This document shows positions 12,241-57,357 of a stretch of 64,000 nucleotides of DNA, piece after piece (the first letter of the stretch is position 1; each line of letters starts with the position of its first letter). A model generated the notes under the pieces. That model was not told the origin of the DNA. It made no database searches and was given only the letters and a program-made list of their open reading frames with translations. The position numbers and the translations under genes were made by a program. The stretch is from a virus (Duplodnaviria > Caudoviricetes): positions 60,722-124,721 of IMG/VR virus record IMGVR_UViG_3300033121_002356; one strand, 5' to 3'.

Positions 12241-12246
12241 ATCATA

Positions 12247-27015: not shown

Positions 27016-30000
27016 TTACGGAGGTGGAGAAGGCTTATAATTATTCGCGCGGGCTGCGGCAAGCGCAGCTTCTGCCTTTCTATCTGCGGACGCGGCGGTG
27101 GCGTTCGCGGCATTAGCAACCCCCGTAACCGCCCTAACTCTATCCGCGACGGCAGATATTTTATTAGTAGCATCATTAGCAATTTGAACGGCCGATGCAA
27201 CCTGTTCTTTTATATTTGGCATCTCAAGTTTTTGTATCACACTCTCAGTGATAGAGGAAATAAGTATTTCGTCAGCACCAGCTGCGCTTGCAGTATTACT
27301 TTTTTTGCTCTCATCACCAGATATTTGTAAGGACCCCGCCTTAATAGCAGGAGTAGTTATTTCAGTTTGAACTATAATTTTAGAAACAGTTAGCTCTGGT
27401 GCTTGCGCCTTCTTTCCATCAGCAGTTGTAGCTCCTTCAGCTTCCTTATCAGTTGAAGTTTTACCATCTAGGCCGGCTGCCTTAACACCAAGTAAATCAG
27501 CCAACGGCTTAGCAGCCTCACTATCTAACCCGTGCTGGGTAAACTTAGCAAAATTTTCCGCTGAAATTTCTTTACCACCGAGAAATGCTTTCTGTCCTCC
27601 GCCAGAGTATTTAAAAGTACCACCAAGTTGTTCAAATGTTTTATCCAAACCAAACGCTTTAACAGTGTCTATATTCTTTGTATAATCATCCTTTGCTTTA
27701 CCAGTCGTACCTGCTGCAAAGGCGGCTATAACCCCATTATTTGCCAAATTAGTACCAGTTACTGTGTCACCAAATGCTGAGGTAGGGGAAATACCAGATG
27801 GACCCACACTACGCACCAAAGCCTGCACACTAGGCTGTAATGCGGTACTGTTGGCCACAGAAGTGGCTAAAGCGCCTTTCATACCAAATGGGTCAATTGG
27901 AGTAGGAAGCTTTGTGCCATCTGATTGCAATAGACCAAATGTAGCCTGTCCTACTTTAGCTTTCTGAAAATCATTATTTCCATATATCTCTCCAAGGTTA
28001 AATCTATCTTCTACCATAATGTCGGAAGGAGTTCTGGTTACAAGTTGACCACTTCCCGACAACCCCAAACCAGCAAAAGGAGAATCTCCGCCTTCAGAGA
28101 GTTTACCCAAAGCGGCTAATTGACGATTACGTGTTTCTACGTCTACATTTCCTGTAAAATATGCATTCTCTGTTTCTTTAGATAGCTTCTTACTGGGTAT
28201 ATTTACCGTATACGCCATTTTATCAATTTCTGGGTCTCTACGAGCAACCGCACCGTATCGCTGCAAGCCATACGATGTACCATTAGCTTCATTCATAATA
28301 CTTAGCGTATTATTAGCGCCCGTCGTGTTACTGAGCCCTATTGCTGGGCGGCGAGCTCTATCATTAGCTAACATTATATCTTCAAAATAACTACCAGTCT
28401 GTCTATTTCCAGAAAGTAAGCTAGCGTTAGCTGCACCAAATAAGTTAGCTCCTTGTGCGTCCTCCCTCACTGTATTTATAATAGAAGGAAAGGACATATC
28501 AGGACTTAACTTTTTAAGGGTTTCATCGCTTACATTTTTATTTCTTAACTCAAGAATAAGATTGTCAAAGAAATTATTTAATTTATTTCCTATCTGGTCT
28601 GGATTAAATCCTTCTGAGCTATATAACCCCTTTAGTGCTTCAAGTCCGCCACCGGTACCTTTTCTTGGGCCTCCTACTATAGAAGTACCATCCTTTATGG
28701 TGGACTTATCTGGTGAAGGAACCAAAGACATTGTAGACGTATCAAGAGATACCGCATCTGCCGCACTTTTTACTGCTTTATCAGCTTTTTCTTTTAGTCT
28801 TTCTTCTGGTTCAGGCTCTACATATCCTTCTCTTCGCTTTGTGTTAAGCTGTGTTTTAACTGCTTCTATAGTCTTAAGAAGATTTTTCATTGCTTCTTCA
28901 TTTTCTACAGTAACTTCACCTGTTCTTACAGACTCCAATATAGGGCGAGCCATAGACGAAGTTGAAGTATCAAATTCGTGGGGCTGAAGTATGTTTCCCT
29001 TATATTCCCTTACTGTAGCACCGGGCGTAAGTCTTTGTAAATCTTTCAAAGTAGTAGCAATAGTATAAAGTTGTGATTTAAACCCATAAAACTTTCTATC
29101 TGATATATCCTGCAAAGTAACACCAGAAGACTCTGCTGCTTTTTCTAATTCTTTAAAAGCTTCTTGAACCTTTTTAAAGGTATCAAGTCCACTACCAGAA
29201 ACGGGAGAAGGAATTAAAGGCATTATGTCACTACTATACCCGCTACTATACGGACTTGGCTTCGGTTCTGGAAAGTTTGGTGTACTAGGAAAATTAGTTA
29301 ACGAGGCATTAAGTTTATTTTTATCATATTTATCTGTACCATAATTGCGCAATGTTTCACTATGTCCAGCAAAGGATTTCGCAAATTTTTCTCTAGCTGC
29401 AAAATTACTACTCAATGATGTCTCGTTATCTGGGTTATCTACACTTTTTAGAAAATTAGAAGTGTAACTATTAGCATAACTACTCATAGCACTGTCTCTG
29501 GCCTCTTTGAGCTCAACATCAGTAAAAGGACCAGATGATTCTCTATTTCTCCTAATTCTATCCAATTCTTTTGTAAACCTATCTCGTATATCTTTAAACC
29601 CTCTTTGAACCTGTTTGTCATCAATAGCGGTTTCTTTTTTATTGTCAGAAAAAGCCTCGTTAAACTTCTCCCATTTTACAAATATAGGTGATGGAGATAT
29701 ACTGTCTTTATATTTAGGCGGAGGGCCTAATATTTTATCCGACTCCAATAATTTATTAAATAGGTCTCTTGGAATACCTTTGCCTGACATAACATCAGGA
29801 GCCAAAGACACTATATCTTCGGATGCTTTCTTTTTCTTAAGAGCCTCTTCTAATCTTTTTTCTATATCCGGTCCAGTCTGGCCAGCATCTATAGATTCCT
29901 GTATAGTTTTTACTTCCTCATTCAACGCATTTCTTCTTCTATTTGCACCCCTAAAATAATAAGAGAGCGGACTAGTAAAATATTCAACAGAATCTCTTAA

Positions 30001-33000: not shown

Positions 33001-36000
33001 AAGTTCTTTATTTTCGTATTGACCTAAATTTCCAGACTTAGCAGCAGCTCCTACCTCTTCTAATGATTTAGTATCAGGAGATATGCCGGCCTTCGTAAAA
33101 TCTCTAATTATATTTTGTACAAGTAATTTACTTTTAACAGCATTCTGCCCTGCGGAAGAGAAGTCCGAGACAAGTGCCTTAGTTTCATTAAAAGTATCAA
33201 CTAAAGATGTAATACCACCGCCCCCTTGAACTTGTCGCTCAAACGGAGATAGATTAATTCTTCTAGTTCCTAAATCAATAGGGGGCCTATTACGACCACC
33301 CGTCAAGTAATTTCGCTCATCAAATTCTTTAAACTGTAATAACTCTCTTCTTTCTCTTATTGAATCAGCTACATTATTTAATACATCCCCGAGACTTTGT
33401 ATTTCTTGAGAAAACGTTATTATAGCAGAATTATTAGCGAGAGTCTCTTGTAGGTCTGTAACTGCTTTTCTAGAAGCACCAGATATCTTAACTAAATTGT
33501 CTACCTCTTCAGAGTCAAATTGAGAATTTCTACCTCCTTCTTTTGTTAGACCAAGAGCCTCTTTTCTACTTTTAAGGGTTTCCTGCTGTTTCCTAACTAT
33601 ATCTAAGAAATTTTCTCTTTTACCCCCGGCATCTTCTCCTCTGATGTTTATTAGATTATTACCAAAAGTTCTATAAAGTCTTAATTGAGGTTCAAGCTCT
33701 TTTTCAAGTCTAGCTCCTGTATTAATATCTCCTGGAAATGAAATACCAAATCCTGCACCAGTTGAAATTCTTCTCGCCTCTTTAACCGCAGCCTCGAATA
33801 ATGTCTCTGTGTCTCTTGCCACATTAGAAAACATCATTACAAATTTAGATTGTGCATTATCAGCAACAGAAGACATGGCCTCATTAAATTGGTCCGTAGT
33901 AAAACTCTTTATCTCATTATCATTTCCTAGTGTTTGGAATCTATCCCCAATATATACAGCAAATTTAGCAGCTACTCTAAGTTTATCAGCTATCTCATCA
34001 CTAAATGTAATAACGTCTCTATTAGAGGGGGCTGCTCTGCCTTCAGAAATACCTTTAGGAGTTAGTCCCGCTTCCATATATTTCTCGGCTATGCCTCTTC
34101 CTGAAGTAGTTCCCCTTGTAGGTATACCAAATTGAGAAAATACCAAAGCAGCTAAATTCTCTTTGGCTCGTGTATCTACCGCGTTTATTTTATCGTATGC
34201 AGAACCAGTTAAAGCCCCTTCTTTTGCAAGCTCTCTTCTAGAGAACTCTGTCAAAGCATTTTTATTAGCATCTGAGGAAAGTTTTGTAAGAACATCAGAT
34301 GGAGCTAAATTCTTGGAAGCAGGAATTAAATTCTCATAAATTCTATTAAGAATAGTATCAACATCTGTTTGAGCTTCAGCTATTTTTGTCTGAAGTTCTC
34401 TCATTTCTGGGTCAACAGACTTATCTCCAGTTTTTCTCTTGTCCGTCAATACTTCCATTCTATTTGTATAATAATTTAAAGCATTTATAGGCTTAGTATC
34501 TATTTGTTTTTCTAGGTATCTCCCGCCCGCCCCGAAATGAGAAAGTAATTCTTTAAATCTTTGTCGCATAATATCCCAATTATTTGAAAGATTTCCTAGG
34601 TCATTTGCGAAGCCTTCCGCTATTTTAATTTTTGAAAAAGCAATAGCGGTATCCGAGAGAGACTTTACAAGGTCTAACTGGATGGATAATAAATTATTTG
34701 TTTTTAATATTGCATTTCCCTGCTTATCGTAACTATCTACTAAGTCTAGATTTATTCTTGCTACTTCATTTATAATTGATTGCTGCTCAATTAAAGCCTT
34801 CTTTCGTATAGCCAGTGGGGATTCAAAAGTACCTTCACTGATTTTACTCAAAGCCTCAGCAGTGCCTTCAGGTCCCGCCTTCTCAAGATTATAAGATTTT
34901 AAGAAAGCTTGACCAGTTTTAGCTAATCTAGCAGAGGCAGAAGCAGAACGAGATGAAGTATCCTCTTCCTTAAAGATAGAAAGATTTAATTTCTTTTCTG
35001 TACTTTCCCCTGTTAACCCAATCTTAAGTTTAGAATCTAATAAAGAGTCTATGTCATCTTTTAGATTTGAAAATGTCTTTTTAGCAGCATCACCAACGTC
35101 AGTAAATAGAAGGGCTAATGCAGCTACAGTGCCTCCTAGAAGCTTAGTATTAGAAGTTAACATAGGTATAACTTTTTCTAACCCAGTAGCAAGGCCTATT
35201 TTTAAATTAGAAAATAACTTTAAAGGACTAGCACCGCCTAGTAAATCTCCTGTCATCCCTTTAATTTCTTGTATCTTACCAAGAACAATTAACAAGGATG
35301 CAGCAGCCGCGGTGGCTATCTTAACAGAATTTGGTATCTCTGTAAAAATATGCACCATACCAGTCATAGTTGCTACAACAGCCTTGGCTACAGGAAGAAG
35401 AACATCACCAAATTTTATAGCAAGAGCGTCCGTTGATGCCTTTAATACTTCTACTTTCTTTGCATATGACTCCATAACCAATTGATTTTCTCTCATGGCG
35501 GAACCCTGAGAATTAGCGCTTATAGTAGTTGCACTTAAAGCAGTATCAAAGTTATGTAAAATTACCGCAAAGTCATTATAACGTCTAGTTCCTACTGTAG
35601 CTTCAACCACATTTAGCTTTTGTTCTGCTGAAAGAGAGTCAAAAACAGTAGATAAGTCTTTCAAAATATCTGTAGCAGTACGTAATCCTTTTGCGTCGAC
35701 TACTGGTATACCTATCTCAGCTAGTGCCTGTCTTGATTTCGGTCGATATAGAGACCTCAACATATAGTTTAACGAAGTACCAGTTTCTCGACCTGTTTTT
35801 CTAGTTACTTCTACTAATGCAGTAGTTAATCCCAAGAATTCATCAAAGCTAACACCAGCTACCTTAGCAGAAGCACCAGCTCTTAATAGAGAGTCTCCTA
35901 GGTCCGTCTCTGTAACTGCAAATCTATTAGCCACTTCATTCAATGAATCTAAGAATCTTAATGCATCTCCTCCTTCTTCGGGGAATTGTTTTAATGCTGA

Positions 36001-39000: not shown

Positions 39001-42000
39001 TTGACTAACCCCTTCTAAAAGAGCTTTATTCATTTTAGTTCGACCAACATCCCCTTCCTCAAACCCTAATTCACTTTGTACCCGAGGAGAAATAGCGTTT
39101 GTGCTAATAACTTTTCTTGCTTGGTCTGTTAGTAATCCGAGCATGCCTTTGTCCTTATCTTCAAGAACTCTATCTAACATACTAGAACCTAGCTGCCCTT
39201 CCCCGTACCCACCCCCAAAGGACTTACTTAAAGCTAAATGCCCTCCTTCATGAGCAAGAGTAGAAACTAGTTTCATTTTCTCCTCATCGTCCATATCGTC
39301 AATCTTACCCAACAACTTTGACGGGTCAAACTTACCATAAGTAACGAGTTTATTTCCTCTTAAAGCTTCTGCAATAGTCGGAAATGCCTTTTCATTAAGC
39401 TTTGGAACTCCGCCAGCGAATTGCCCATATATATCAGTATTTTCTTCAGAAAAAAGATACCTATTTGGGTCTTCAACAGCTTTAGCCCCATATGCACGAA
39501 GAATCTTATGCATATTCATATATTGCTGTATTTTTAGGTCGTTATCGCTCCCGGAAATACCGGAATGAGCCAAAAATTCCATACCACCTTGTGTTAAATC
39601 AGGAGTAAAAACTCCAAGACGTCTGTAACTTCCTACTTCTCTTCCATATCCCCCCTCTTGCCTCCCACGAGCAGTACTAAGTCCTACGTTACTAATATCT
39701 CCTTCAGAAAGTCTCTGTAATGCTCTTTCAATAAATTGTTGCCATTTAATAATATTTGCTTCCAATTCAGCCTTATAGGCTTCAAATTTATCATCTGTTA
39801 CAACTACAGACTGAGCCGGTAAATCAAGAGGAGCTATGCCCAAAGCAAGTTCTCGATTTCCTTTTACATAGTCCTTTATTCCAGCAATTAATCGGTCAGG
39901 TTTAAATAGGTCTTTATCTTCCTGGTTTGCTGGCCGGTCTTGCCCCTCATCTCTGGGGCGCATAGATTCTACCTGACTTCTAACAGCAGTATCTATTTCC
40001 TCATCGGATTTTCCTTTCAACCTTTTCTTTAATTCATAAAGAGCTAGACCATATGGCATAAGCTGGTTTCTAAATTTGTTGTTCTTACCACTTAATAAAG
40101 CAGCTGGGTCAGCCTCTCCTTTAAGTTCTTTACTAGTTTTTACATCATATAGCCCTAGTAAATTCATTCCTGTTGCTGGGCTTACCTCAGTAGTCATGAT
40201 GTCTGCTTTACCACCTATACTATATGGAACTGACCCCGCCGCCACGCCCCCAGTCTTAAGAGATAGTTCGCTTCCAATGGCTTCCTCTGCTAACTTTCGT
40301 CTATCCTCAGTCTCTATGCTTTTATCATACATAGTTTCAGCCATGTGGTGTAATTCCACAGTACCTTTCTGTGGATGCTCGCTTTCTATAGATTCTCTAA
40401 GAACTGCAAGGCCTCTGGCTCTGGCTTTCTCAAGATTTTCTCTATCACCCTTAAACTCAGCAGCAAATGCAACATATGCTCGACCGACAGCAGTTCCTAG
40501 TATAGCTGGGTCAGACTTTTCTGGTTCAAACCCAAGACTTTCACGAACCTTAGCAGGTATCCCCTTTTTATCTACACCAAGAATCCCTTTTGACGACCTA
40601 AAAGTACTTAAACTAAGATTATCTCCTGCGGCTGCGGCTGTAGCAACCATAGAAGGTGACAAATACATTTTACCTCTATTACTTCCCTTTTCTACCAAAG
40701 ACTTAAAAAAATCTTCAACTTCTTTCTCTTCTGGTACTATGCCTAAAGTATTAAGAGCGTCTATAGAGGCTCTATCAAAATTACTAAACTTTCTAGAGCC
40801 AGCCCCGGATACTTCCGCCTTCTCATAATCATACCCACCACGAGCGCGCTGTCTATTAGTAGCTTCGACCAAACGCACAAGAGTATGCTGAGATTCAGTA
40901 AGTATCTGTAGCATTTTTGACTGCAATTCGACTAGCGCCTTAAACTGTGCATCACTCATTAATCCGCTGCTAGACCCGCCGCCAGTAACAGCTACACTAG
41001 AAGCACCCGGAATAGAAGGACCACCAGTAGAAGCCGCCTTTATTGCCTCTGCTTTCTTTATCTCTTCTGTATCTGTGTCGGTAACTCCTCCTGCCTGAGA
41101 CATAAGACGCATAAGCTGAAGACTATTAGCTCCCCCTTTCCCAAGAGCATCTAACTCTTTAATTTTTTCTAGTCTTACCGCATTATATACAGTTCCAATT
41201 CTTAATTTAGACCTGCTAATAGCTCTTTCATTATTTTTTCTTTCTTCTTCCACCCATTCTTGTGGTTCATGCCCCTCAGGTACATCATCTAATGTACCTA
41301 TTAAACTTCTTTTCTTTAAAAGTAACTGTAAATGCTTTTTCTCTCTAATTAATCGTCTATTTCTATCTTTTTTAAATTCAGTTTGTAGTTCTTTATAAGA
41401 AGTGGTTACATCCGTATCGCCACTAAAATTTTCCAAACCTTCATTAGGAAGAGAATCTAGCCCCAAAAACTCATTATCGGACATATCGAATTTAGAAAGT
41501 AATGCGTCTTTATGTTCCTGAAGAGCACTACTAGCCTTAACGCTTCGAATAAACTTTTCTCTAGCAAAAAAGGTTGGCTGACTTAATGTTCCAAGATTAG
41601 ATTTTGACGGCAATTGCACCCTCTGGAACATTAAAGCAATTTCTTTATCTAATTCCTTAACGGATTCGGGAGGCTCAATTTCTACTTCCTCCCCCTCTTT
41701 TGACCCCGACAATAATCCATAGGCTTCTGCATGTTTATCCTGTCTACTAAGTACCCTTTTACGTAAAGAAGATACTTTATCATCATACTCACTTAAATAC
41801 TTTTCTGCTTCTTTATGACTTAATTGAACCGCACCTGTATCAGCAGTAACAAAATCTGGATTGATAGCTCTAACTATACTCTTTAAGAAGCTTGCAGTAA
41901 CACCGCCACTAAGTGCTGCTTTTCCTGCGCTCTCTTCATCCCCGCCAATGTACCCCAGCATTTCTCTTAATCGGTCAATGCCCTTATTAGCAAACTGTCT

Positions 42001-45000
42001 AACGGGCGCAACAGTCTCAAATACCCTCGGTCCTTTTATTCTTACGGCGGCGGCAACTATTTCACGTATACTAGCAGTACTAAGGTCATGAATACCCCCT
42101 ACGTCTAGCTTAGAAAATTTAGAAGCCATACCAGGTAAATCTGGCTTAAAGTCCTTTAAGAACCCAAAAACTTTAGCTATTTGTTCTAGTATCTCTCCTC
42201 TGGCTTCTCTCTCTGTTTTACCTCCTCTTCTTAACTGCCACTCTCTACTTTGCATCTTATCAGAAACAGAAGAAATTGTATTTCTTTCTAAAGTACTTCT
42301 CATAAGTTTAACAATCTCTCTAGGAGAATATTCTGAAGACATGGTATCAATAATACCGGCACCAGTTATACCGCTCTTTCCCGCAAATATTCCTTCATTC
42401 TTTTTAGCGTCTTCTATTCCTTGTTCAATTTGTTTTGCAGAGTATTCTTTAAAACCTCCGCCCGCATCCCTAAGATTTACTGTGGAACCAGGAGCCATCT
42501 CCTCTCGTATTCTTGCAAAAGCCAACAGTCTTTGTTGTAACTTTTCTGGAGTTAGTTTACTTAACTCTGATATTCTAGCAGCTTTATTTGCTCTAGCCGG
42601 TTCATTTAACGATTCGAACCCTCCGCCCTCTTTAATAGAACTCATAAAATCATTAAACGACATCTCTCCACCAGAATCTTCACTGTGCGCTGGTGCATTT
42701 AATGCATTAAGAAGTTTCAATGCAACTGGTATATTACCAAACTTTGTCGAAAGGGCCTCTTGAATAACACCGGCAGAAGAATGCTGAAATGCACCTTCCC
42801 TTGTTTTAAACTCATCCGATAGCGCTTCTTGCTCTTTACTATCAATACCTATTGAATGTCTTTTACTTATGTTAGCTAAAGCTCTCTTGTTTTCAGCTTC
42901 AAGTAAACGCACTACTGTATTAGTACTTTCAGTAACAGCACCGGTTAGTAACTTAGGACCAGCTAGTTTTAGTATTGTACTTTTAGCCTCTAATTGGTCA
43001 ACAGCCTCAGAAGCCATCGCATCAAGATTCTTTTGTGTTTCTTCACCTTCTAATGAGCCAAGAACTATTGGGCGCGACGGAAGAGATACCCCTACTTTTT
43101 CTAAAGAGCTTCTTAAAGCTTTTTCCCCTATAGCCATTCTCCCTTCTTGACCATATTCCGTAGGAGCCTCGCCGTCACCACCACGTATTTTAATAAACTG
43201 TTTAAAAGCATCAGATACTGCTAGTTTTGCTTCTGGTCCTCTAAGATTGCCCATAAGTCCATAAGATGGTGCTTGTATTTCATCTTCTTTCCCTGTTCTA
43301 CCAGAAAAGAATCCAGGAAGCTGCTCATTCATAAATAAGCTATCTATAGTATCTAAAATATCTATACCTCCAGCGTTTGCACTAGAAGTATTACTTGTAC
43401 GTATCTTTGGGCCTTTTCCTGACATCTGTTGGTCCTGTAACTCCGACATAAAATCAGTTACAAGAACTGGTTTGCCATTAACCATCTCGTACCCTTTAGC
43501 TAATTTTGTTACAGACCGAACAAGTTCTTTTTGGGCATCCGTACCGGCCATAAGAGAAATAAAGAATTTATCCCCGTCGAAGTCAGCTGCCATACTCATA
43601 GAATGGAAAGTATTTGTCAATGCTTGTATAGCTTTACTTAAAGCCGTATATCTAAGATTAAGGTCTTTTAATTTATCTTTATCTACATCAGTCAAACTTC
43701 CAATTGGCATTGACAATAATTTACTACGTTGTTCAGATATTTCATCTCTAGCGGTTACCAATTTTCCGCCAACTGCGCGGCCGCCTTTAAATTGTATTAA
43801 TGCAGGGTCTAAGGCTGCTTCTTGAGAAGCCTTAGAAAGACCTCCAGCTATTCTAAGAGAAAACTTATTATCGTCTTCATTATGAGTTTTTAATATTCTA
43901 CCTTGAAAAGATTTAAAGTCAGTAATGGGGAATCTTGTTACAAAGGAGCCTATGCCTTCCGTTTTAGCCTGAGCCAAGAGTTTATCTCTTGTATCTTCAT
44001 CTGTATAGCCGGATGAGACCATATTATTAAGCAACTCTTTTAAACGGTCCTCGTGCATTTCTACTGTTTCTAATGAAGTAGTCTTTACTTTTTTAGACTC
44101 CTCCATAAGCTTCTCTAAATGTGGGCCAAAAGACGCAAAATCTGACATATCACTACCAGCTAGCTTTTCACTTAAGTCCCTCACACTCTTCAGCTGGTCA
44201 GATATATCAACTTGTCTATTAGTAATAGGAAGCATCATAGTTGGATATCTTAACTCAGAAGTTCCTGTATGAAATATAGACCCTTTACCGAACACTTGTT
44301 GTTGAGAAGCATCCATAAGGCCTTTTATACCATATTGTACTTGAGAGGCTACTTCTGGATTTGTCTCTTCCCCCGGTCTAAACCCAAGTCCTTTAAATCC
44401 AAGTCTATTAGATGAGTCAGAAAATATAGTGGCCAATTGCTCATATTGAGCGCTCGCCTGGGCACGGGTATCGTCATTACTATAAAGTCTAGAAATTTCT
44501 GAAAATACCGATGGATGCCCTACTGAGCCTCCTTCATGCGGGTCACGATAACGGTAGCCACGTATAAAATAGTTTTCTAATTCACTTACTTTATGAATTA
44601 ACATATTTTTACGAACGGCAGGGGTGGGTGCCTCTGAAATATTAGTACCAATTATGTCTTTAAGAGCGGTTTTATTTCTTTCTCCTATAGAAGCCTTAGC
44701 TACTCTATCTATTTCATCCGATATTTCCTGAGCTTTCTTAGGGTCTTCTTTAGCCTCCTCTATAAGGTCCTTAAGTTTGCTTCCATAGGAAGAGACACCA
44801 GCCTGTAAAGCTGTCTTTGGAAATAATTCCCCTGTATTATATTCTTGGAGAGAACTAACAACACTAGTAATTGCTCTTCCTAATTGGTCTTGCCCGACAC
44901 TTCCAGTATTGGTCTGGAAAGTACCTCTGGCTGCTGCTGAAGGTATAACTACATACTCAGGTAATTGTGATTCGCTCCCTCTTCTTAGCGCCGCTGGTAT

Positions 45001-48000
45001 GGGAATTTTTAATGTTTCTGGGTATTTACTAGTATCATGTACAGAACCAATCAAATCATAAGCAGAAGAAAATGAATCAGGGCTCAACCTCTTAAAGTCA
45101 TTAACATTTACTTCTCTAGCACTACTGACAACGGCTTCTCTATATTTATCTAATTGGGGACTAGTTCTAGCCATCTCAGCATCCATTGCTACCATAACCT
45201 TAAACATTTCATAGAAACGTAAGGATACCCCTTCCGATGCTTTAGATAGCTCTTTGAATATAGCTGAATTTTCTCCAAATGAGGTCTTAAATGCAGCTAA
45301 TGTATTTGGATTAAACTTCAAAAACTTATCACTTTCAACTCCTTCTTGTGGACGTAGATTGGCGAACTCCGTAACTGGTACTTTAGCTATTAATGATTTA
45401 TGTCTACCATCAGTACGTCCAGGACCTCCTATCGCTTCTGATAATATAGGAAGATTATCCCCCTCAGCATGGAACCCTATTCCTTTACCATATTTTCCAA
45501 TTACTCTTCTAAGTAGCGCAGGGTCTTCATTACCAATAACTAAAGGGGTCTCCCCAGTAATAGCAGTAGCAGCCGCTGCAACCATTTCAGCTCGTAATCC
45601 TCGACGAGCAACAGCTGCTTCACTAGTAACCATATCTATTGGACGCTTGGTATAAAGGGCCTCTTCATTATCCTCGCCAGCTACTTCTTTTACCTTTTTT
45701 CTAAAGTCTTCAATAGATTTAATCTCTTGTCCAAATACAAGATTTATAGCAGCCTTAGTCTCTTTTATTTTTTGTATTAATTCTTCTGTATTTAATGCCT
45801 TTGTTTTTCGTCCTTCTTCACGATATTGTGGCAAAGTCATTTCCATTTCTTTTATATCATTCTCATCCCAATACAAAAGATTTCCCAAACCTCTAGCGCC
45901 AGCTCTAGCAGTTTTAAGAGCTGCTCTATCCATGTTTGGTAATTTTTTATTATGTCCTAAATACTGAAGAGACTGAAAGGGGGTTTTCGGTAATAATTGT
46001 GAGCCTAAATCATCCTTAAAAACTACGACACCTTTATCTCCTGTTTGAAGAGATACTTTCTTTCCTTGCTGTGAATGGAATAAATCTAATATCTGTAAAA
46101 CAGTAGCCTCATCTACAGTAGACCCTTGCTTAACTCTTGATTCTATTATATCTAATATTTGAGAAGCAGCCTCCTTCTTATCTATAGTAAAAGCAGCGGA
46201 CCCCATACTAGATGTAACCGCTTGTCCTGTTCTATAAACTCTTCTTAAGGCATCTTCTCTATTTATTATTTTACCGTCACTACCAACAAATTGTTCATTT
46301 ATATCTCTAATCAAAGAATGAACACCGCCAGTAACACTTCTTGCTAATCTTGACCCTCTACGAAGAAGTTTCTGGTCTTCAAACGTTTCTGGGGTAGTTC
46401 TAAACTCTGTTACAGTATTGTACGCTGAAGGCCCTATCAAACCCATATCAATAGCCTGTTGCCCCTCTACCGTCCTAAGATAAGGCAAATCAGGCCCAAT
46501 ACCACTTAATGGCTGCTCACTTCGTCTTGTTATAACTGTTGGTCTTGCGTACGGAATTAAATCTCTAACACTGCCTCTAACTCTTTTAACGGATATTTCA
46601 TTTCCGTTACGACCTTCCGATATTTTAGCGGCTACTTCTTCACTTAATGAACGTCCTGATACATTTCGTATACCTTCTAAATTTTCGTTGGTAGCCCCAA
46701 ATGCTAGTACATCATTTAACTCTCTTAATACGTCTTCTATTTCAGTTTGTACACTAAATCCATGCTCAAATAGACCATAACTATTTCTACCGCCGCCTCT
46801 ACTAACTCGTCCTATATCGGCACTTGTAGTTATATGAACCTGTTGGAGTGCTCTTTTATTTTGATTCGCTCTTCTTAGTCTAGCTCGACGCGGGTCACCA
46901 CTAGAAGCAATTATTTGCTCTTCAAACGGCTCGACATCCTCTAAAAGAGCTGTGATAGGTCTGGAAAAATTTGATTGTGCCTTAGGTATATTTTGTGGAC
47001 GATTTCTTAATTCTACAAGATTCAAGAGAGCCCTGGCTATGGGGGTAGACATATCAGTACCTCTTGCTGCCTTCTTCCCATCGTCTGTTGTAAGAACATC
47101 TACCATTTTATCTGCTATATTCTGCCCCTTAGCAACAGATAAATGTCTTACTATCGCTGTTCCAGTTATTCCTAATTCTCTAGAAAGACTAAGTAATTGT
47201 TCTAGCCCCATATTAGAATTATTAAGATTAGCTAAAACGGTATTGGCTGCCTCTTTAGCCGCAGCTTGCTGGGCTCTACTTATTCTTGTAATATCCCCAG
47301 CTTGAGTTTCAGAATAACCAGTTCTAGCTGCTACTGCTCTGGCTTTTCTTTCAATTGCCTCCAACGCACCCGGGGTGCGTCCTGCGGGAAGTAGTTTAGC
47401 TATCTCCGCATCACGAACTCTCTTAAATACATTTTCTTTTGCAGACTCCGCAGCAGTGGCCTGACCTGCCCTATATGCAATTGCTTGCTTTAGTGCTTTT
47501 TCTATTTCTCCTTTAGCAAACTCCCCGTGTTCACCGGAATTAAGTCTTTTAAATAACTCTTCGAACTCGGGTTCTAATACCTGCCCTTTTAAAATAGATG
47601 TTTTAATCCTCTCAGAATCCCTTCCCATTGTTCTTACAGCCAAAGGTCTTTCCTTACTGTATGCGCCCATATTAGAAATTGCTGAAACAAGTCTATCTAT
47701 ACCAGTTCGTAGTTCTACGAACTCAACTGGATTACTTCTAATAGGTCCCTTTTGTCCAGTATACACCAACTGTGCCCCTCTATCAGAGGCCGCTAAAGTA
47801 GGAACAGGAAAAGATACTACAGCACTTTCTACTTCTTTCTTAAATGTACCTTTTAATTGTTTTTTTAAATCTCCAAGAGCCCTTGCTATTTCAAACTCAG
47901 TGTCTAATTCTCTAGTTCCTAAATGCTTTGTAACTACCTTACGTAATTGTTCTACATTTAGTGTTCTAAACTCTAGCCCTCCAAAATCTCCCGAAGGTGT

Positions 48001-49035
48001 AGTTACACGTTGTAATTTAGCTTCTTTAAAACTAGATGCGGCTTTATTACGTTCCGTACCACCTTGATTGTATGTATCGGCAATAGTTTCAACTGAAGAA
48101 GATAAGACTTTAAACCCCGTATTTAATTTTTCTACAACATCTCGACTTAATACTTCAGCACCCCTAGTTTTTCCTTTAGTAAATGTTTCTGTAAATACTT
48201 CTTCTAATCTTTTAAGAGCATTAGCTACTTTTTCTTCACGTTTTCTAGCTAATTGCTCCACGGAAGACATGTTTGTGCTTGTTCTACCGGCTTGATTTGC
48301 CTTTTGTATTTCCTCAACGGTCATAGGTACTGCCCTATGAGGAGGAACTCTACTAGCCGTTACACTGCTTCTAGTGCCTTTAATTTCTCTTTCTGCATTA
48401 GCCTGAAGTGTAGTTAAGTTAGAGAGTAATGCTGGTAATGTATCATCTCTATAGCGATTTACTCCCTCATGAACTACTAGAAGCTGTTTAAGTGCATTTA
48501 GAATTTTTGAAGACTCTTGATTTACAGCTACTTGTGCTTTTTTATGTGCTTCTAGTAAAGCATACATTTCCTTACTATTAGCAACATCTGCGGCAGAAAG
48601 CCTTGCCATGCCCCCTTTGCCATAAGATACGCCTGCCCCGGGGGTAGACGCAGTTATAGCGGCCATCCTAGCGGTATCAACGCTGGGATGCCTACTCTTA
48701 TCAGCATAATTATTTTGTATGGTATTATTTAGCTCTGCTATATTTACAGAAAGACGCCTTAAATCGGGGTCAGGTACTGATTTGGCAGAACTGGGGGTTC
48801 CTCTAGCGGTAGGCGGTGCGCCTTGTGTAAAGGAGTACTCAACAGGGCGTGGAGGAAGTTTAGCATCGCTTACCTTCGTTGGATTTTTTCCATTATTTCC
48901 AAATCTAAGGTCTATAATGTTATTACCAAAATCCTCAATAGACTCTTTAAGTACCTTAAGTCGTCTTTCTAACTCCTCAAGATTTGTTAAGTCTACCCCT
49001 ATCTTAATCTTAAATAGCTCACTTTCGTTGGCCAA
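27016..49035 (-). CDS. Giant tape measure polyprotein (7339 aa): N-terminal two-barrel RNA polymerase, PD-(D/E)xK nuclease-like and zincin-like domains, followed by TP901-type tape measure region
   Basis: 22-kb uninterrupted ORF with TTG start and GGGGG RBS. It sits in the canonical TMP slot between chaperones and hub genes. Domain motifs are listed separately. Confidence 0.9.
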   Translation of the reverse strand: MANESELFKIKIGVDLTNLEELERRLKVLKESIEDFGNNIIDLRFGNNGKNPTKVSDAKLPPRPVEYSFTQGAPPTARGTPSSAKSVPDPDLRRLSVNIAELNNTIQNNYADKSRHPSVDTARMAAITASTPGAGVSYGKGGMARLSAADVANSKEMYALLEAHKKAQVAVNQESSKILNALKQLLVVHEGVNRYRDDTLPALLSNLTTLQANAEREIKGTRSSVTASRVPPHRAVPMTVEEIQKANQAGRTSTNMSSVEQLARKREEKVANALKRLEEVFTETFTKGKTRGAEVLSRDVVEKLNTGFKVLSSSVETIADTYNQGGTERNKAASSFKEAKLQRVTTPSGDFGGLEFRTLNVEQLRKVVTKHLGTRELDTEFEIARALGDLKKQLKGTFKKEVESAVVSFPVPTLAASDRGAQLVYTGQKGPIRSNPVEFVELRTGIDRLVSAISNMGAYSKERPLAVRTMGRDSERIKTSILKGQVLEPEFEELFKRLNSGEHGEFAKGEIEKALKQAIAYRAGQATAAESAKENVFKRVRDAEIAKLLPAGRTPGALEAIERKARAVAARTGYSETQAGDITRISRAQQAAAKEAANTVLANLNNSNMGLEQLLSLSRELGITGTAIVRHLSVAKGQNIADKMVDVLTTDDGKKAARGTDMSTPIARALLNLVELRNRPQNIPKAQSNFSRPITALLEDVEPFEEQIIASSGDPRRARLRRANQNKRALQQVHITTSADIGRVSRGGGRNSYGLFEHGFSVQTEIEDVLRELNDVLAFGATNENLEGIRNVSGRSLSEEVAAKISEGRNGNEISVKRVRGSVRDLIPYARPTVITRRSEQPLSGIGPDLPYLRTVEGQQAIDMGLIGPSAYNTVTEFRTTPETFEDQKLLRRGSRLARSVTGGVHSLIRDINEQFVGSDGKIINREDALRRVYRTGQAVTSSMGSAAFTIDKKEAASQILDIIESRVKQGSTVDEATVLQILDLFHSQQGKKVSLQTGDKGVVVFKDDLGSQLLPKTPFQSLQYLGHNKKLPNMDRAALKTARAGARGLGNLLYWDENDIKEMEMTLPQYREEGRKTKALNTEELIQKIKETKAAINLVFGQEIKSIEDFRKKVKEVAGEDNEEALYTKRPIDMVTSEAAVARRGLRAEMVAAAATAITGETPLVIGNEDPALLRRVIGKYGKGIGFHAEGDNLPILSEAIGGPGRTDGRHKSLIAKVPVTEFANLRPQEGVESDKFLKFNPNTLAAFKTSFGENSAIFKELSKASEGVSLRFYEMFKVMVAMDAEMARTSPQLDKYREAVVSSAREVNVNDFKRLSPDSFSSAYDLIGSVHDTSKYPETLKIPIPAALRRGSESQLPEYVVIPSAAARGTFQTNTGSVGQDQLGRAITSVVSSLQEYNTGELFPKTALQAGVSSYGSKLKDLIEEAKEDPKKAQEISDEIDRVAKASIGERNKTALKDIIGTNISEAPTPAVRKNMLIHKVSELENYFIRGYRYRDPHEGGSVGHPSVFSEISRLYSNDDTRAQASAQYEQLATIFSDSSNRLGFKGLGFRPGEETNPEVASQVQYGIKGLMDASQQQVFGKGSIFHTGTSELRYPTMMLPITNRQVDISDQLKSVRDLSEKLAGSDMSDFASFGPHLEKLMEESKKVKTTSLETVEMHEDRLKELLNNMVSSGYTDEDTRDKLLAQAKTEGIGSFVTRFPITDFKSFQGRILKTHNEDDNKFSLRIAGGLSKASQEAALDPALIQFKGGRAVGGKLVTARDEISEQRSKLLSMPIGSLTDVDKDKLKDLNLRYTALSKAIQALTNTFHSMSMAADFDGDKFFISLMAGTDAQKELVRSVTKLAKGYEMVNGKPVLVTDFMSELQDQQMSGKGPKIRTSNTSSANAGGIDILDTIDSLFMNEQLPGFFSGRTGKEDEIQAPSYGLMGNLRGPEAKLAVSDAFKQFIKIRGGDGEAPTEYGQEGRMAIGEKALRSSLEKVGVSLPSRPIVLGSLEGEETQKNLDAMASEAVDQLEAKSTILKLAGPKLLTGAVTESTNTVVRLLEAENKRALANISKRHSIGIDSKEQEALSDEFKTREGAFQHSSAGVIQEALSTKFGNIPVALKLLNALNAPAHSEDSGGEMSFNDFMSSIKEGGGFESLNEPARANKAARISELSKLTPEKLQQRLLAFARIREEMAPGSTVNLRDAGGGFKEYSAKQIEQGIEDAKKNEGIFAGKSGITGAGIIDTMSSEYSPREIVKLMRSTLERNTISSVSDKMQSREWQLRRGGKTEREARGEILEQIAKVFGFLKDFKPDLPGMASKFSKLDVGGIHDLSTASIREIVAAAVRIKGPRVFETVAPVRQFANKGIDRLREMLGYIGGDEESAGKAALSGGVTASFLKSIVRAINPDFVTADTGAVQLSHKEAEKYLSEYDDKVSSLRKRVLSRQDKHAEAYGLLSGSKEGEEVEIEPPESVKELDKEIALMFQRVQLPSKSNLGTLSQPTFFAREKFIRSVKASSALQEHKDALLSKFDMSDNEFLGLDSLPNEGLENFSGDTDVTTSYKELQTEFKKDRNRRLIREKKHLQLLLKKRSLIGTLDDVPEGHEPQEWVEEERKNNERAISRSKLRIGTVYNAVRLEKIKELDALGKGGANSLQLMRLMSQAGGVTDTDTEEIKKAEAIKAASTGGPSIPGASSVAVTGGGSSSGLMSDAQFKALVELQSKMLQILTESQHTLVRLVEATNRQRARGGYDYEKAEVSGAGSRKFSNFDRASIDALNTLGIVPEEKEVEDFFKSLVEKGSNRGKMYLSPSMVATAAAAGDNLSLSTFRSSKGILGVDKKGIPAKVRESLGFEPEKSDPAILGTAVGRAYVAFAAEFKGDRENLEKARARGLAVLRESIESEHPQKGTVELHHMAETMYDKSIETEDRRKLAEEAIGSELSLKTGGVAAGSVPYSIGGKADIMTTEVSPATGMNLLGLYDVKTSKELKGEADPAALLSGKNNKFRNQLMPYGLALYELKKRLKGKSDEEIDTAVRSQVESMRPRDEGQDRPANQEDKDLFKPDRLIAGIKDYVKGNRELALGIAPLDLPAQSVVVTDDKFEAYKAELEANIIKWQQFIERALQRLSEGDISNVGLSTARGRQEGGYGREVGSYRRLGVFTPDLTQGGMEFLAHSGISGSDNDLKIQQYMNMHKILRAYGAKAVEDPNRYLFSEENTDIYGQFAGGVPKLNEKAFPTIAEALRGNKLVTYGKFDPSKLLGKIDDMDDEEKMKLVSTLAHEGGHLALSKSFGGGYGEGQLGSSMLDRVLEDKDKGMLGLLTDQARKVISTNAISPRVQSELGFEEGDVGRTKMNKALLEGVSQFASEGKVVPLDTNVAEEKVASVYKNVLMTALEELLVGVMVRTSIGVSAPNLGPLRNFNDPRILASLQKMAQRAASPSAPDSDYAKFSSGKRGSSEYPISTRLGISKEALASMSDAELESLLVSAPSASSAGYTARRLPSIEKALSGSGTFTMRLGELSGAGARGKELDKNDKNRAYTSNQGKLRRVMGLIEGLGTPQSQREGLEFQTVGTKKHLRWLEMIEKQAERYGHTFSRTEEDGIVSISVGRGSGVSASATRLPSEIDKDIAKRDKYFRRPSILTRRERFSRDRRAANSYATLESRLATLKDERERARIETPFSSPSADVLRLTGGSGGGDSDFDPGLFDFIGGIFEQNATPEEAAARHGTVPVEVQDRKKISHEDSLEKIVNSPVIKTLRQKHGLFRTTFGEKFGPVPTYFDFSETKGFDENSALFKLLSGARAGLTPSEDTKKELLAALGELHETAKKAQTGVVGREELHKSLKKAMDIGDRIAGGKEGSALSKINPTSFWAEYYDLAYQSDTANLEKTQKVAQELQAKPIKERDTTWTSQVESVERDYERLTRSIGEHMGRKFATRQSFPYAPRGRGRGLEGGYIGLEEGIADIPGFTDAFNRAKRDEASREPNNAVVLRAAQIGAGTIMSDAPPSVRLNEILTPLLDPSNRPFFSDYLRDTIATTRGIFDTRMKAGKTSEKERRDQTLIEATLKKLYAGVEKSSMGSLVMSEEHADIVASGFMKEVAAMQKRNPKFNPGEYLFGKGYKGRVGRTEIREMLLNLPDEIPHENMAMLAPGFQEKLQRENLGRLRLRVYASDYLGKKFPGIREHYADSLHAFEPGTSIGQNQKITDSSGRIIQTRNTIIRPRGPDPELSFRDISEKVENNAPSSNQTLSNAFKRVALWGTASGVVYGLIRAIGSMAQVIKQTEVNMIELQKVMNPATTDFGKLRDSAVGFAKEFGTSVNTVLDSFVVFAKQGLGQSEVLERGRTSVLAGNVTEGMKPEKATEILTSALKQFPEEGGDALRFLDSLNEVANRFAVTETDLGDSLLRAGASAKVAGVSFDEFLGLTTALVEVTRKTGRETGTSLNYMLRSLYRPKSRQALAEIGIPVVDAKGLRTATDILKDLSTVFDSLSAEQKLNVVEATVGTRRYNDFAVILHNFDTALSATTISANSQGSAMRENQLVMESYAKKVEVLKASTDALAIKFGDVLLPVAKAVVATMTGMVHIFTEIPNSVKIATAAAASLLIVLGKIQEIKGMTGDLLGGASPLKLFSNLKIGLATGLEKVIPMLTSNTKLLGGTVAALALLFTDVGDAAKKTFSNLKDDIDSLLDSKLKIGLTGESTEKKLNLSIFKEEDTSSRSASASARLAKTGQAFLKSYNLEKAGPEGTAEALSKISEGTFESPLAIRKKALIEQQSIINEVARINLDLVDSYDKQGNAILKTNNLLSIQLDLVKSLSDTAIAFSKIKIAEGFANDLGNLSNNWDIMRQRFKELLSHFGAGGRYLEKQIDTKPINALNYYTNRMEVLTDKRKTGDKSVDPEMRELQTKIAEAQTDVDTILNRIYENLIPASKNLAPSDVLTKLSSDANKNALTEFSRRELAKEGALTGSAYDKINAVDTRAKENLAALVFSQFGIPTRGTTSGRGIAEKYMEAGLTPKGISEGRAAPSNRDVITFSDEIADKLRVAAKFAVYIGDRFQTLGNDNEIKSFTTDQFNEAMSSVADNAQSKFVMMFSNVARDTETLFEAAVKEARRISTGAGFGISFPGDINTGARLEKELEPQLRLYRTFGNNLINIRGEDAGGKRENFLDIVRKQQETLKSRKEALGLTKEGGRNSQFDSEEVDNLVKISGASRKAVTDLQETLANNSAIITFSQEIQSLGDVLNNVADSIRERRELLQFKEFDERNYLTGGRNRPPIDLGTRRINLSPFERQVQGGGGITSLVDTFNETKALVSDFSSAGQNAVKSKLLVQNIIRDFTKAGISPDTKSLEEVGAAAKSGNLGQYENKELALKSIEVNKDIFTESARTNEILEIIAKNTVEGFTEKDKDARVKSLQSKLPQTFQAVDKAAKEGDFSTLTSIISNVFTSGGIPEKTKLAIRDAIIERTREVGDRTIQEAPLEITQGRNMKDALESKLADLAALTPGGDKTTDPIKFRANLGEFEKLTLAILDNIISSTKAQASELASSGDRLTTILDGLKATIDAVLGAVEGGFNSILSTFNQLSTVVATPSIGVGELAGFKNVNPSIDLRRRKEDLSPEERLFSSRQEDVFSVNILNSALQESGTMLTGLKDKLVQFSKEGRSQAERNVLSNTIRDIQSAREDMTDQLKILADSLSKGLDIQKMISSLESLRKQLDTFKIDKDNLYSKASYDTAQGLQPRQLLDGTNGQKYFGSAGLTASQQEVERTQKKHPSIIDDRNASLAKEAADEARRLKENQEELARQQSVGEEARKVAIEGVRLNVPGSKALLNDINAELAGSGRIVGEKNHVPEFAGIDLEGSAIDRGIRSLTLELEKTKANTNAEAIAGKLGGTFKDLFSNFILAEDALFQRSDSVAIANTDRMVDILQQIVKNANNSMAGGVIPSGGTTGGVAGGASSGVPGAVGTIFASNGGPMYTGAGGRYYNTSGYQIASEGVKAAGIGIAGSLPSSTSPSSSAFNIPDMLSPESALIDGIYDIKGPVLPPSTVNSSNPLASKAFTMPSFSSGVDVTTAGLTNDLARTVPLMGDFNTISARRAAAEAARAAAKVKNVITPEAAYAMKRAYYVSRKGRDYSKFPEFVPTEAGITTPTNPVGPKVRESIPKLNGYLEEVRDAFFPKPDPNLNWPENVYTAAAREGRTGAAIAREAAAPLEEAAPKLGFFRRMGRYMSAGADSVGGLAKNIPGGALSKAVVPMGIAVGASDVYTDYRGSRQAGSTRTMATYDAFMGPRRRTDDVPTLSYITNTASNVLRPSSSGMFIGGFLGGLAGIPGGPPGIVAGAATGAAWGGAGGLALGAAGEITNQRFSSKDKDNPLRDSVEYFTSPLSYYFRGANRRRNALNEEVKTIQESIDAGQTGPDIEKRLEEALKKKKASEDIVSLAPDVMSGKGIPRDLFNKLLESDKILGPPPKYKDSISPSPIFVKWEKFNEAFSDNKKETAIDDKQVQRGFKDIRDRFTKELDRIRRNRESSGPFTDVELKEARDSAMSSYANSYTSNFLKSVDNPDNETSLSSNFAAREKFAKSFAGHSETLRNYGTDKYDKNKLNASLTNFPSTPNFPEPKPSPYSSGYSSDIMPLIPSPVSGSGLDTFKKVQEAFKELEKAAESSGVTLQDISDRKFYGFKSQLYTIATTLKDLQRLTPGATVREYKGNILQPHEFDTSTSSMARPILESVRTGEVTVENEEAMKNLLKTIEAVKTQLNTKRREGYVEPEPEERLKEKADKAVKSAADAVSLDTSTMSLVPSPDKSTIKDGTSIVGGPRKGTGGGLEALKGLYSSEGFNPDQIGNKLNNFFDNLILELRNKNVSDETLKKLSPDMSFPSIINTVREDAQGANLFGAANASLLSGNRQTGSYFEDIMLANDRARRPAIGLSNTTGANNTLSIMNEANGTSYGLQRYGAVARRDPEIDKMAYTVNIPSKKLSKETENAYFTGNVDVETRNRQLAALGKLSEGGDSPFAGLGLSGSGQLVTRTPSDIMVEDRFNLGEIYGNNDFQKAKVGQATFGLLQSDGTKLPTPIDPFGMKGALATSVANSTALQPSVQALVRSVGPSGISPTSAFGDTVTGTNLANNGVIAAFAAGTTGKAKDDYTKNIDTVKAFGLDKTFEQLGGTFKYSGGGQKAFLGGKEISAENFAKFTQHGLDSEAAKPLADLLGVKAAGLDGKTSTDKEAEGATTADGKKAQAPELTVSKIIVQTEITTPAIKAGSLQISGDESKKSNTASAAGADEILISSITESVIQKLEMPNIKEQVASAVQIANDATNKISAVADRVRAVTGVANAANATAASADRKAEAALAAARANNYKPSPPP
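35480..36280 (-). other. TP901-family tape measure core domain (about aa 4255-4520)
   Basis: 'MIELQKVM...LRDSAVGFAKEFGTS...FAKQG...LDSLNEVANRFAVTETDLGDSLLRAGASAKVAGVSFDEFLGLTTALVEVTRKTGRETGTSL'. Confidence 0.9.
38890..39480 (-). other. Zincin-like metallopeptidase motif region within the TMP
   Basis: 'STLAHEGGHL' (HExxH, aa 3262-3266, nt 39238-39252). Candidate third ligand in 'ALEELLV' at about aa 3377. Confidence 0.55.
40020..40670 (-). other. PD-(D/E)xK (RecB/Cas4-like) nuclease domain within the TMP (about aa 2790-3005)
   Basis: LSPS, 'ILGTAV', 'SELSL', 'IGGKADI' (D2945), 'YDVKT' (D2964/K2966) and 'QLMPY' occur in canonical order. Confidence 0.75.
42440..46970 (-). other. Single-chain two-barrel (beta + beta'-like) RNA polymerase region within the TMP (about aa 690-2200; boundaries approximate)
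   Basis: FED aa 885-887; GKKVSLQTGDKGV aa 991-1003; PID-x10-R aa 1132-1145; GKGSIF..R aa 1583-1596; RFP aa 1701-1703; DFDGD aa 1818-1822 (nt 43570-43584) followed by AQKE. Confidence 0.88.
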
Positions 49036-52986: not shown

Positions 52987-53084
52987 TTCGATTATTCCTC
53001 CAAATGTAAAAGTCTATGCATATCCTTTTCGGATTTTGTGAGCACCCATCAATCCCATTCCTTGTGGCCAAAATAAATTGGCTC

Positions 53085-56262: not shown

Positions 56263-56269
56263 AATTTAT

Positions 56270-56914: not shown

Positions 56915-57357
56915 TTATTCATCCTCTTTAATTCCTTAACCCGTCTGGCTAAGGCTTTTTGTAAAAATTTATTTTTACCATTCTTCCTAGCCATAGTCTG
57001 GGCATACGTTAATAGTCTAGTACTGTCAATTTTAGATATTAGTAGTTTAGTATCGTCATTATACTCTAATTCTGATAATATTTTTGGGGTAACCGTTTCT
57101 ACATCCATCTGATACTTCTTTAATTCATTTTCTATACGAATTTCTTTAGGAGTCTCTGGATTTAATAAGTCAACCCCTATCACTTCTACCCCAGAGGAAT
57201 TTGATTTATTTTTTATATGTTCTATAAAATTTTCTAAAGTCATTCTTAAAGAGTATACTTTATAAAGGTCTAATAAATTTATTTTTTCGTTAGGACCAAT
57301 AGTTCTACCAAATACATGCTTAAATGTCCCTGTCCTATTGATAATATAGCCTTCCAT
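56911..57357 (-). CDS. Hypothetical basic protein (148 aa)
   Basis: AAGGAG RBS; first gene after an AT-rich intergenic gap. Confidence 0.7.
   Translation of the reverse strand: MEGYIINRTGTFKHVFGRTIGPNEKINLLDLYKVYSLRMTLENFIEHIKNKSNSSGVEVIGVDLLNPETPKEIRIENELKKYQMDVETVTPKILSELEYNDDTKLLISKIDSTRLLTYAQTMARKNGKNKFLQKALARRVKELKRMNK

Follow-up and report, generated by a model that had tools for sequence, protein, structure and literature searches.

The 64,000-nucleotide stretch of DNA analysed here (the window) comprises positions 60,722 to 124,721 of the IMG/VR virus record IMGVR_UViG_3300033121_002356 (Duplodnaviria; Caudoviricetes). A single gene in it encodes a protein of 7,339 amino acids (aa). 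We propose that this protein is the tail tape measure protein (TMP) of a large uncultured phage, and that it also serves to carry enzymes which would enter the host together with the phage DNA. In this it would resemble gp96 of phage P23-45, a TMP that has an RNA polymerase (RNAP) at its N-terminus as well as membrane segments and a metallopeptidase (Chaban et al., Nat Commun 2024; PMC10770324). Judged from sequence and from the analogy with gp96, the probability of this reading is roughly two in three. The gene is located as follows.

27016-49035, minus strand: whole gene of the giant tape measure protein (open reading frame (ORF) of 22,020 nt, 7,339 aa, no internal stop)

The ORF starts with a TTG codon, 42 nt behind the stop of the previous gene and preceded at 7 nt by a Shine-Dalgarno-like GGGGG; its stop codon occupies 27016-27018. 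A first-pass annotation of this DNA had placed enzyme cargo N-terminal to a TP901 core. This was borne out, as an RNAP-like and a PD-(D/E)xK module lie there and follow each other in the same order across a large family.

A TP901-type core identifies the tape measure protein

35299-36300, minus strand: TP901-type tape measure core, aa 4246-4579 (TIGR01760, PF10145, PHROG)
35263-35427, minus strand: two hydrophobic, membrane-type segments at the end of the core, aa 4537-4591 (Kyte-Doolittle scan)

TIGR01760 (tape_meas_TP901) matched aa 4246-4579 with an E value of 1.4e-43 (149.3 bits, cut-off 28.8), and PF10145 matched aa 4291-4481 with an E value of 1.2e-28 (100.8 bits, cut-off 33.2). The core was also matched by PHROG TMP families (best E 5e-82) and is 36-45% identical to the relatives P0004-P0010. 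On its sequence, the tape measure identity of the 7,339-aa protein is beyond doubt. The start of the core had been put at about aa 4255, close to the aa 4246 at which the TIGR01760 match begins. In a Kyte-Doolittle scan of the whole protein, aa 4537-4591 contained the sole stretches with a value of at least 1.5.

A family of giant tape measure proteins shares the module order

Far from being an isolated case, the protein is a member of a family that comprises at least 74 giant TMPs of 4,055-7,998 aa, mostly 6,000-8,000 aa, which are encoded on contigs of up to 325 kb. Throughout the family the modules are collinear: an RNAP-like module, a Gly-rich linker, a nuclease and the TP901 core. When proteins of 4,036-12,844 aa were searched for the TP901 core, eight other giants were returned, six of which carry LDFDGD upstream of the core. 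By BLAST, five of these giants were also similar to aa 612-1436 of the protein, with E values down to 6e-23 (P0005). When residues 1300-2650 of P0009, the most central member, were used as query, about 70 giants from JGI, ENA, NCBI and Logan were found, nearly all with PF10145. The RNAP region is common to these giants (E values as low as 1e-262, to P0009). With a degenerate DNA pattern for KLDFDGDA, the hits were 13 viral contigs, all 13 of which encode family members, plus 87 metagenome stretches, and RFPxTG was present just upstream in 48 of these 100 matches. One relative lies on a 234-kb record with an estimated completeness of 89%.

With the RNAP region alone as query, the protein appeared to be an orphan. 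A tblastn search with aa 700-2300 found no match in 50,697 deposited phages, and phmmer with aa 1150-2349 against 1.84 billion representatives returned nothing beyond the protein and two fragments with marginal matches. The relatives were missed in the latter search because their scores are too low for a library of that size.

Three alignments were used. A1 contains the protein and six relatives of 4,461-7,618 aa, which are collinear, A3 contains 26 sequences of the RNAP-like region with about 20% identity to the protein, and A4 contains 21 sequences of the nuclease region. The first-pass annotation had proposed a search for metagenomic phage proteins in which the TP901 core occurs together with DFDGD, PD-(D/E)xK and HExxH motifs. 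The core, DFDGD and the nuclease signature indeed recur together in the family, whereas HExxH does not recur at the same position. Extra precomputed Pfam domains were noted in the relatives P0068, P0070, P0071, P0023 and P0074 (the RNase_T exonuclease PF00929, PF14449 and, in one of them, a HhH/PolX-like set). At the sequence level, the family suggests exchangeable cargo on one tape measure scaffold.

The recurrent order also bears on the possibility that the 22-kb ORF is an assembly chimera of separate RNAP, nuclease and tape measure genes. The exact protein is known from one contig only, and aa 3020-4200 are unique to it and thus without outside support. On the other hand, the RNAP-like, nuclease and TP901 modules are found in this order and in one frame in dozens of independent assemblies from all four sources named above, and its collinearity with the relatives begins at about aa 155 of the protein and extends past aa 5200. 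Moreover, the composition is even across the gene, without a single cysteine compared to 1.09% in the other proteins of the phage. In view of this recurrence in independent assemblies, a chimera, which the first-pass annotation had named as a threat to its model, is very unlikely for the shared modules. Overall, we consider a chimeric origin of the ORF highly improbable.

An RNA polymerase-like module precedes the core

42106-47202, minus strand: RNAP-like module, aa 612-2310, candidate virion two-barrel RNAP (BLAST, A1 and A3)
46006-46431, minus strand: candidate beta-like barrel (DPBB-B), aa 869-1010, with ETFEDQ (E886, D887, Q888) and GKKVSLQTGDKGV (K993, K1001)
43546-43953, minus strand: candidate beta-prime-like barrel (DPBB-A), aa 1695-1830, with TRFPIT (R1701, P1703, T1705) and AADFDGD (aa 1816-1822)
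43570-43584, minus strand: DFDGD, candidate catalytic Mg-binding triad, aa 1818-1822

Searched against the phage's own record, the A3 profile matched the stretch of aa 612-2310 with an E value of 7e-206. In the 26 sequences of A3, E886, D887, Q888, K993, G999, G1002, V1003, R1701, P1703, T1705 and D1818-D1822 are invariant, and K1001 within GxKxxxxxxGxKGV is nearly so. The beta-like motifs precede the beta-prime-like motifs by about 700-800 aa. DFDGD, which would be expected by chance only 0.004 times in this protein, is invariant in both A1 and A3. Across the 74 giants the triad reads DFDGD in 63, DYDGD in seven and DHDGD in one, so that D-x-D-G-D is kept in 71 of the 74.

We take TFEDQ and GxKxxxxxxGxKGV to be the counterparts of NFEDS and GDKMAGRHGNKGV (with the two active-site lysines) in the beta subunit of bacterial RNAP, and RFPxT and DFDGD to be those of RxPxLH...NADFDGD in beta-prime. 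Both bacterial motif pairs were located in the E. coli rpoB and rpoC sequences. In hhalign comparisons, a DFDGD block of seven sequences aligned to rpoC 456-501 with 63% probability (E 7e-5). The corresponding block of 26 sequences scored 29.6 against rpoC 458-480, while shuffled controls scored 16.0 +/- 2.7 and none of 70 reached 29.6. The same block scored 28.3 against gp96 773-789 (shuffles 15.0 +/- 2.6, 0 of 70 reaching 28.3). For the beta-like block, the best hhalign match to E. coli rpoB was 1062-1076, which is GDKMAGRHGNKGV, the catalytic lysine loop. In addition, Pfam RNA_pol_Rpb1_2 (PF00623) recognised the DFDGD site in a 7,224-aa frame of one relative, out of five, with an E value of 0.003, below the cut-off. 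These similarities are modest in strength but fall at consistent sites, and they argue that the module is quite likely a homologue of two-barrel RNAPs, and it is probably also an active virion RNAP.

A probable Cas4/RecB-type nuclease module lies between the RNAP-like module and the core

39856-40458, minus strand: Cas4/RecB-type PD-(D/E)xK module, aa ~2860-3060 (A4 alignment, PDB profile match)

The protein contains GKAD...YDVKT...QLMPY at aa 2942-2995, with the D...DxK...QxxxY set at aa 2945-2995. In all 21 sequences of A4, G2942, D2945, D2964, K2966, T2967, Q2991 and Y2995 are invariant. The signature GxxD ... [DE]xK[TS] ... QxxxY was present in 56 of the 74 giants, located 850-1,000 aa downstream of the triad and 700-800 aa ahead of the core. 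When the A4 profile was compared with the PDB, one solved structure was matched, 4ic1_A, over residues 58-125 with an E value of 2.5e-4 (23.9 bits), covering the H...E...D...ExK region. 4IC1 is the Cas4 nuclease SSO0001 (PMC5704561). The PD-(D/E)xK module of the first-pass annotation is thus found where it had been placed, with motifs that are invariant in the aligned members and with a Cas4 structure as match, and on this sequence evidence the module quite likely has the PD-(D/E)xK fold. Since the protein has no cysteines, it cannot hold the 4Fe-4S cluster of Cas4 proper; with the four-cysteine cluster absent, the resemblance to RecB and Cas4 is limited to the core of the module. The phage also has a stand-alone Cas4-like gene, to which the nuclease region showed no match by BLASTP. 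No report of an injected nuclease on a TMP chain was found in the literature searched.

Enzymatic cargo or a very long tape

A number of results weigh against enzymatic cargo and against kinship with gp96. For the RNAP-like module, no curated RNAP model scored above threshold, and PF00623, PF00562 and PF05183, searched singly in the phage's own record, gave no match. Whole-module profile comparisons were short and had probabilities below 2% (beta-prime: 1.9%). The score of the beta-like block was reached by two of 70 shuffles, and its score against rpoC was similar to that against rpoB. AlphaFold models reached a mean pLDDT of 37.9 (single sequence) and 46.6 (26-sequence alignment); the latter model is mostly helical, and the DFDGD stretch is of low confidence. 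Foldseek against the PDB gave no match at E <=0.001, and a VIA-wide fold search returned only helical hairpins, on a low-confidence stretch, and is uninformative on the fold. Because the models are of low confidence, such fold searches are meaningless. A second, non-virion RNAP was not found, the phage's own record being an estimated 44% complete, and in none of five family records did the A3 profile reveal a second paralog of the RNAP. Language-model atlas look-ups for the protein gave no lead. In the nuclease module, the protein has D2904 at the nearly invariant His column of the family and S2925 at a nearly invariant Glu column, with E2923 two residues earlier. Pfam PDDEXK_1 and Cas_Cas4 gave no match in this protein, and PDDEXK_1 faintly matched two of the 21 members (E 0.31), below the gathering score. 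Finally, BLASTP against gp96 gave a best E value of 0.39. Of the RNAP module claimed by the first-pass annotation, the DFDGD motif and its conservation across the family stand, while the fold is unconfirmed by structure prediction.

These observations could be explained if the protein were only a very long tape measure, in which the RNAP- and nuclease-like motifs are structural or assembly elements or enzymatic relics. All curated RNAP and nuclease models stay below threshold, AlphaFold builds no barrels but a mostly helical model, as a tape is, and this protein deviates from its family at two nearly invariant nuclease columns. However, in sequences that are otherwise about 20% identical, the most conserved residues are those required for catalysis only, namely the three Asp of DFDGD, the two beta-like Lys and the D/DxK/QxxxY residues of the nuclease. 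The only triad substitutions seen, DYDGD and DHDGD, keep all three Asp. Furthermore, gp96 is equally unpromising by sequence, yet it is active. We therefore regard a mere long tape as unlikely and favour a tape measure that carries enzymes.

A HExxH motif in a lineage-specific stretch

36766-39978, minus strand: lineage-specific stretch, aa 3020-4090, in which lie HEGGH and, at aa 3673-3682, the second of the Gly linkers
39238-39252, minus strand: HEGGH, aa 3262-3266, candidate zincin-like motif (motif only; not conserved in relatives)

In its full form, the model of the first-pass annotation comprised four working modules, with a HExxH protease that cuts at the Gly/Ser linkers and thereby frees RNAP and nuclease in the host. 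The HEGGH motif is indeed present at the place named, in a plausible hydrophobic context (LAHEGGHLA). Its chance expectation in this protein is only 0.04, so that its presence carries some weight. The modules are flanked by Gly-rich linkers, and about 25 relatives contain HExxH elsewhere in the protein. A protease module found no support, however. HEGGH stands alone within a 1,070-aa stretch that has no counterpart in relatives: BLAST of the stretch against family members gave no match at E 1e-3 or better, and searches in Pfam, PHROGs, NCBIfam, PDB sequences and the atlas gave no family or structure, a peptidase included. No third metal ligand could be assigned. In the relatives, HExxH lies mostly near aa 6300-7300, in the C-terminal part, and does not align with HEGGH. 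Proteolytic release is a conjecture, because gp96 stays full-length in virions, with the RNAP domain as part of it (PMC10770324), and the metallopeptidase of gp96 is an M23 cell-wall hydrolase rather than a processing protease. We consider release by proteolysis, and with it the four-module scheme, quite improbable.

Cysteine is absent from the whole protein

None of the 7,339 residues is a cysteine, whereas about 80 would be expected from the rest of the phage's predicted proteome (1.09% Cys; P about 1e-35). Trp and Tyr are likewise depleted. The lack of cysteine spans the enzyme modules and the tape alike, and it extends to the family, as the 74 related giants have 23 cysteines in 531,942 residues. 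P23-45 gp96 has none. Such a lack would fit a chain that crosses the tail and the oxidising periplasm or envelope in an unfolded state and refolds afterwards.

Comparison with known systems

The closest parallel is P23-45 gp96. It contains an active RNAP, of which a 1,200-residue fragment has a solved two-barrel structure, and which was found only through its DFDGD motif; the association of TMP and RNAP was termed 'previously unsuspected' (PMC10770324). Both proteins are giant TMPs with an N-terminal DFDGD, a downstream enzyme, membrane segments and zero cysteines. Like gp96, the protein described here has its RNAP-like module (aa 612-2310) ahead of the tape measure part (TP901 core, aa 4246-4579) in one frame. 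In both, RNAP similarity is confined to the motif region. The candidate beta-like barrel comes first here, which is the order of single-chain two-barrel RNAPs, gp96 among them. The differences are nevertheless considerable. gp96 has 5,002 aa with DFDGD at 779, compared to 7,339 aa with DFDGD at 1818 here. It carries an M23 peptidase (cell-wall hydrolase) and no PF10145 core, while the present protein combines a TP901 core with a Cas4-like nuclease module and lacks an M23 domain. P23-45 is an 84-kb phage of a thermophile (Thermus, hot spring), whereas the family described here is found on contigs of up to 325 kb. RNAP activity has been demonstrated for gp96 and is predicted here. Neither phmmer nor the A3 profile against the PDB found the gp96 chains, and the sole link is a 17-residue local profile match around DFDGD. 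As no homology to gp96 is detectable beyond the catalytic loop, we treat the 7,339-aa protein as an analogue or a very distant relative of gp96 and not as a member of its family.

The first-pass annotation had suggested that the architecture might be novel. This suggestion cannot be kept in that form, since the 2024 paper on gp96 had already described a TMP that combines an RNAP at the N-terminus with a metallopeptidase and membrane segments (PMC10770324). The concept is known from gp96; the present protein differs from it in core and cargo and is about one and a half times as long, and its family is widespread on large environmental contigs. No other TMP-RNAP fusion and no description of this family were found in the literature searched. 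In the available portion of the supplementary text of Chaban et al., which includes a survey of viral two-barrel RNAP genes, tape measure or TMP is never mentioned. A moraphage paper (PMC12619734) proved to be unrelated.

Further similarities concern single modules. In crAss-like phages, the RNAP is packaged in the virion, where it forms part of a very large protein (PMC10770324). The single-chain RNAPs of phi14:2 (gp66, crAss-like), SPbeta (YonO) and eukaryotes (QDE-1) have both barrels on one chain, the beta-like barrel first and a DxDxD loop, and in this they resemble the module described here with its two candidate barrels, but they lack a tape measure fusion. No sequence match to these three was obtained with phmmer and the A3 profile against the PDB. 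The nuclease shares the GxxD, DxKT and QxxxY motifs and their spacing with Cas4/RecB enzymes (SSO0001, 4IC1), and it differs from them by the lack of cysteines and of the family's conserved His and by being embedded in a 7,339-aa structural protein.

The core itself resembles TP901-1-type TMPs, scoring far above cut-offs and being followed by hydrophobic segments. Ordinary TP901-type members have about 600-2,000 aa with the core near the N-terminus, while in this protein the core follows only after about 4,245 aa of cargo. In concept, the protein is also similar to the polyvalent proteins of Iyer, Aravind and colleagues (2017), reportedly giant proteins in which several enzymatic domains are delivered together with the DNA, and relatives in the present family swap cargo such as RNase_T or HhH/PolX-like domains. 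Polyvalent proteins are typically packaged in the head (MuF-linked) rather than being tape measures.

Remaining regions of the protein

47203-49035, minus strand: N-terminal region, aa 1-611, with weak conservation among relatives (A1 has scattered invariant columns, K155...G445)
40963-41034, minus strand: Gly/Ser/Ala linker, aa 2668-2691, which separates the RNAP-like module from the nuclease module
27019-35262, minus strand: C-terminal tape region, aa 4592-7339 (~2,750 aa; BLAST to relatives)

Searches in Pfam, PHROG and PDB gave no match for aa 1-611, and the N-terminal 4,200 aa as a whole had none in Pfam, PHROGs, NCBIfam and PDB sequence searches. Both Gly/Ser linkers quoted in the first-pass annotation are present, at aa 2668-2691 and aa 3673-3682, and several relatives have Gly-rich runs at the position of the former (A4). 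BLAST to relatives, with matches over aa 4672-5290, showed that the C-terminal region is conserved up to about aa 5290 and divergent beyond. A Gly-zipper-like patch was noted at aa 6284-6335, and this Gly-rich patch aligned loosely to gp96 4851-4912. Searches of the C-terminal 2,400 aa in Pfam, PHROGs, NCBIfam and PDB sequences returned no domain match.

Genome record and neighbouring genes

The source record in IMG/VR has 124,721 bp, of which the window is the right-hand half, and its completeness was estimated at 44% by CheckV. The 7,339-aa protein is also recorded on a contig of 152,078 bp. All ORFs of at least 120 aa on the 124,721-bp record lie on one strand. The left half of the record encodes DnaB, an intein-bearing ribonucleotide reductase, PhoH-PIN, the stand-alone Cas4-like nuclease and a ClpB-like ATPase, and the genes around the giant are nearly all without any family match. 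The source is a large, very divergent phage, probably jumbo-sized and uncultured. IMG/VR labels it 'provirus', whereas no host-like block was seen in the 124,721-bp record; about 27 kb of the 152,078-bp contig had been trimmed. The Pfam sheath model gave no match in two records.

Several other ORFs were noted. An intein ORF of 547 aa (54619-56262, minus strand) contains Hint, Intein_splicing and LAGLIDADG_3 domains and faintly matches a terminase large-subunit PHROG; it may be an intein-interrupted packaging ATPase. A second intein, of the LAGLIDADG type, interrupts the ribonucleotide reductase large subunit at record positions 11822-14872, outside the window. Three consecutive ORFs of 807, 889 and 522 aa (12247-18907, minus strand), each with a sub-threshold match to the bacterial Ig-like domain Big_1, are probably distal tail or fibre proteins. 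Upstream of head/packaging-like genes, an ORF of 1,299 aa (57451-61350, minus strand) has a C-terminal MopE-type metal-binding motif (E 5e-10), and an ORF of 846 aa (61367-63907, minus strand) has a C-terminal tail-fibre domain (PHROG E 2e-14). Two more very large ORFs are Pfam-negative, one of 1,902 aa (2732-8440, minus strand) and one of 1,660 aa (record positions 52358-57340, minus strand). On the contig of P0007, a relative of 4,461 aa, the genes next to the giant are arranged as they are here: two of 352 and 289 aa come before it (348 and 285 aa here), and one of 744 aa comes after it (706 aa here). Downstream on that contig lie several HNH and GIY-YIG homing endonuclease genes.

Proposed role and implications

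By analogy with gp96, the protein would be stored in the tail lumen and expelled at infection, when its hydrophobic segments may help to form a channel through the envelope. The RNAP end would then transcribe the first-entering phage genes without need for the host enzyme, and the nuclease would act on DNA in the cell, either that of the host or the ends of the phage DNA. Delivery at ejection, as put forward in the first-pass annotation, is the expected fate of a TMP and has been shown experimentally for the analogous gp96 (PMC10770324). With somewhat better than even odds, virion RNAPs fused to TMPs are widespread in large and jumbo environmental phages, either independent of gp96 or anciently diverged from it, on a tape that also carries a cysteine-free Cas4-like nuclease and exchangeable cargo.

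In the source databases, members of the family are labelled only 'TP901 family phage tail tape measure protein', where they are named at all, and early-transcription machinery would therefore be missed in jumbo-phage genomes. The roughly 70 natural variants offer material for studying how a 1,500-residue enzyme is stored, passes the tail tube and refolds, with the near-absence of cysteine as a testable clue. If the RNAP module is active, the P23-45 case would widen to a general way for large phages to start transcription without the host enzyme, in which the phage brings along a polymerase of its own that is tethered to the injection channel. The tail lumen would, in that case, serve as a modular device that delivers a host-takeover kit.

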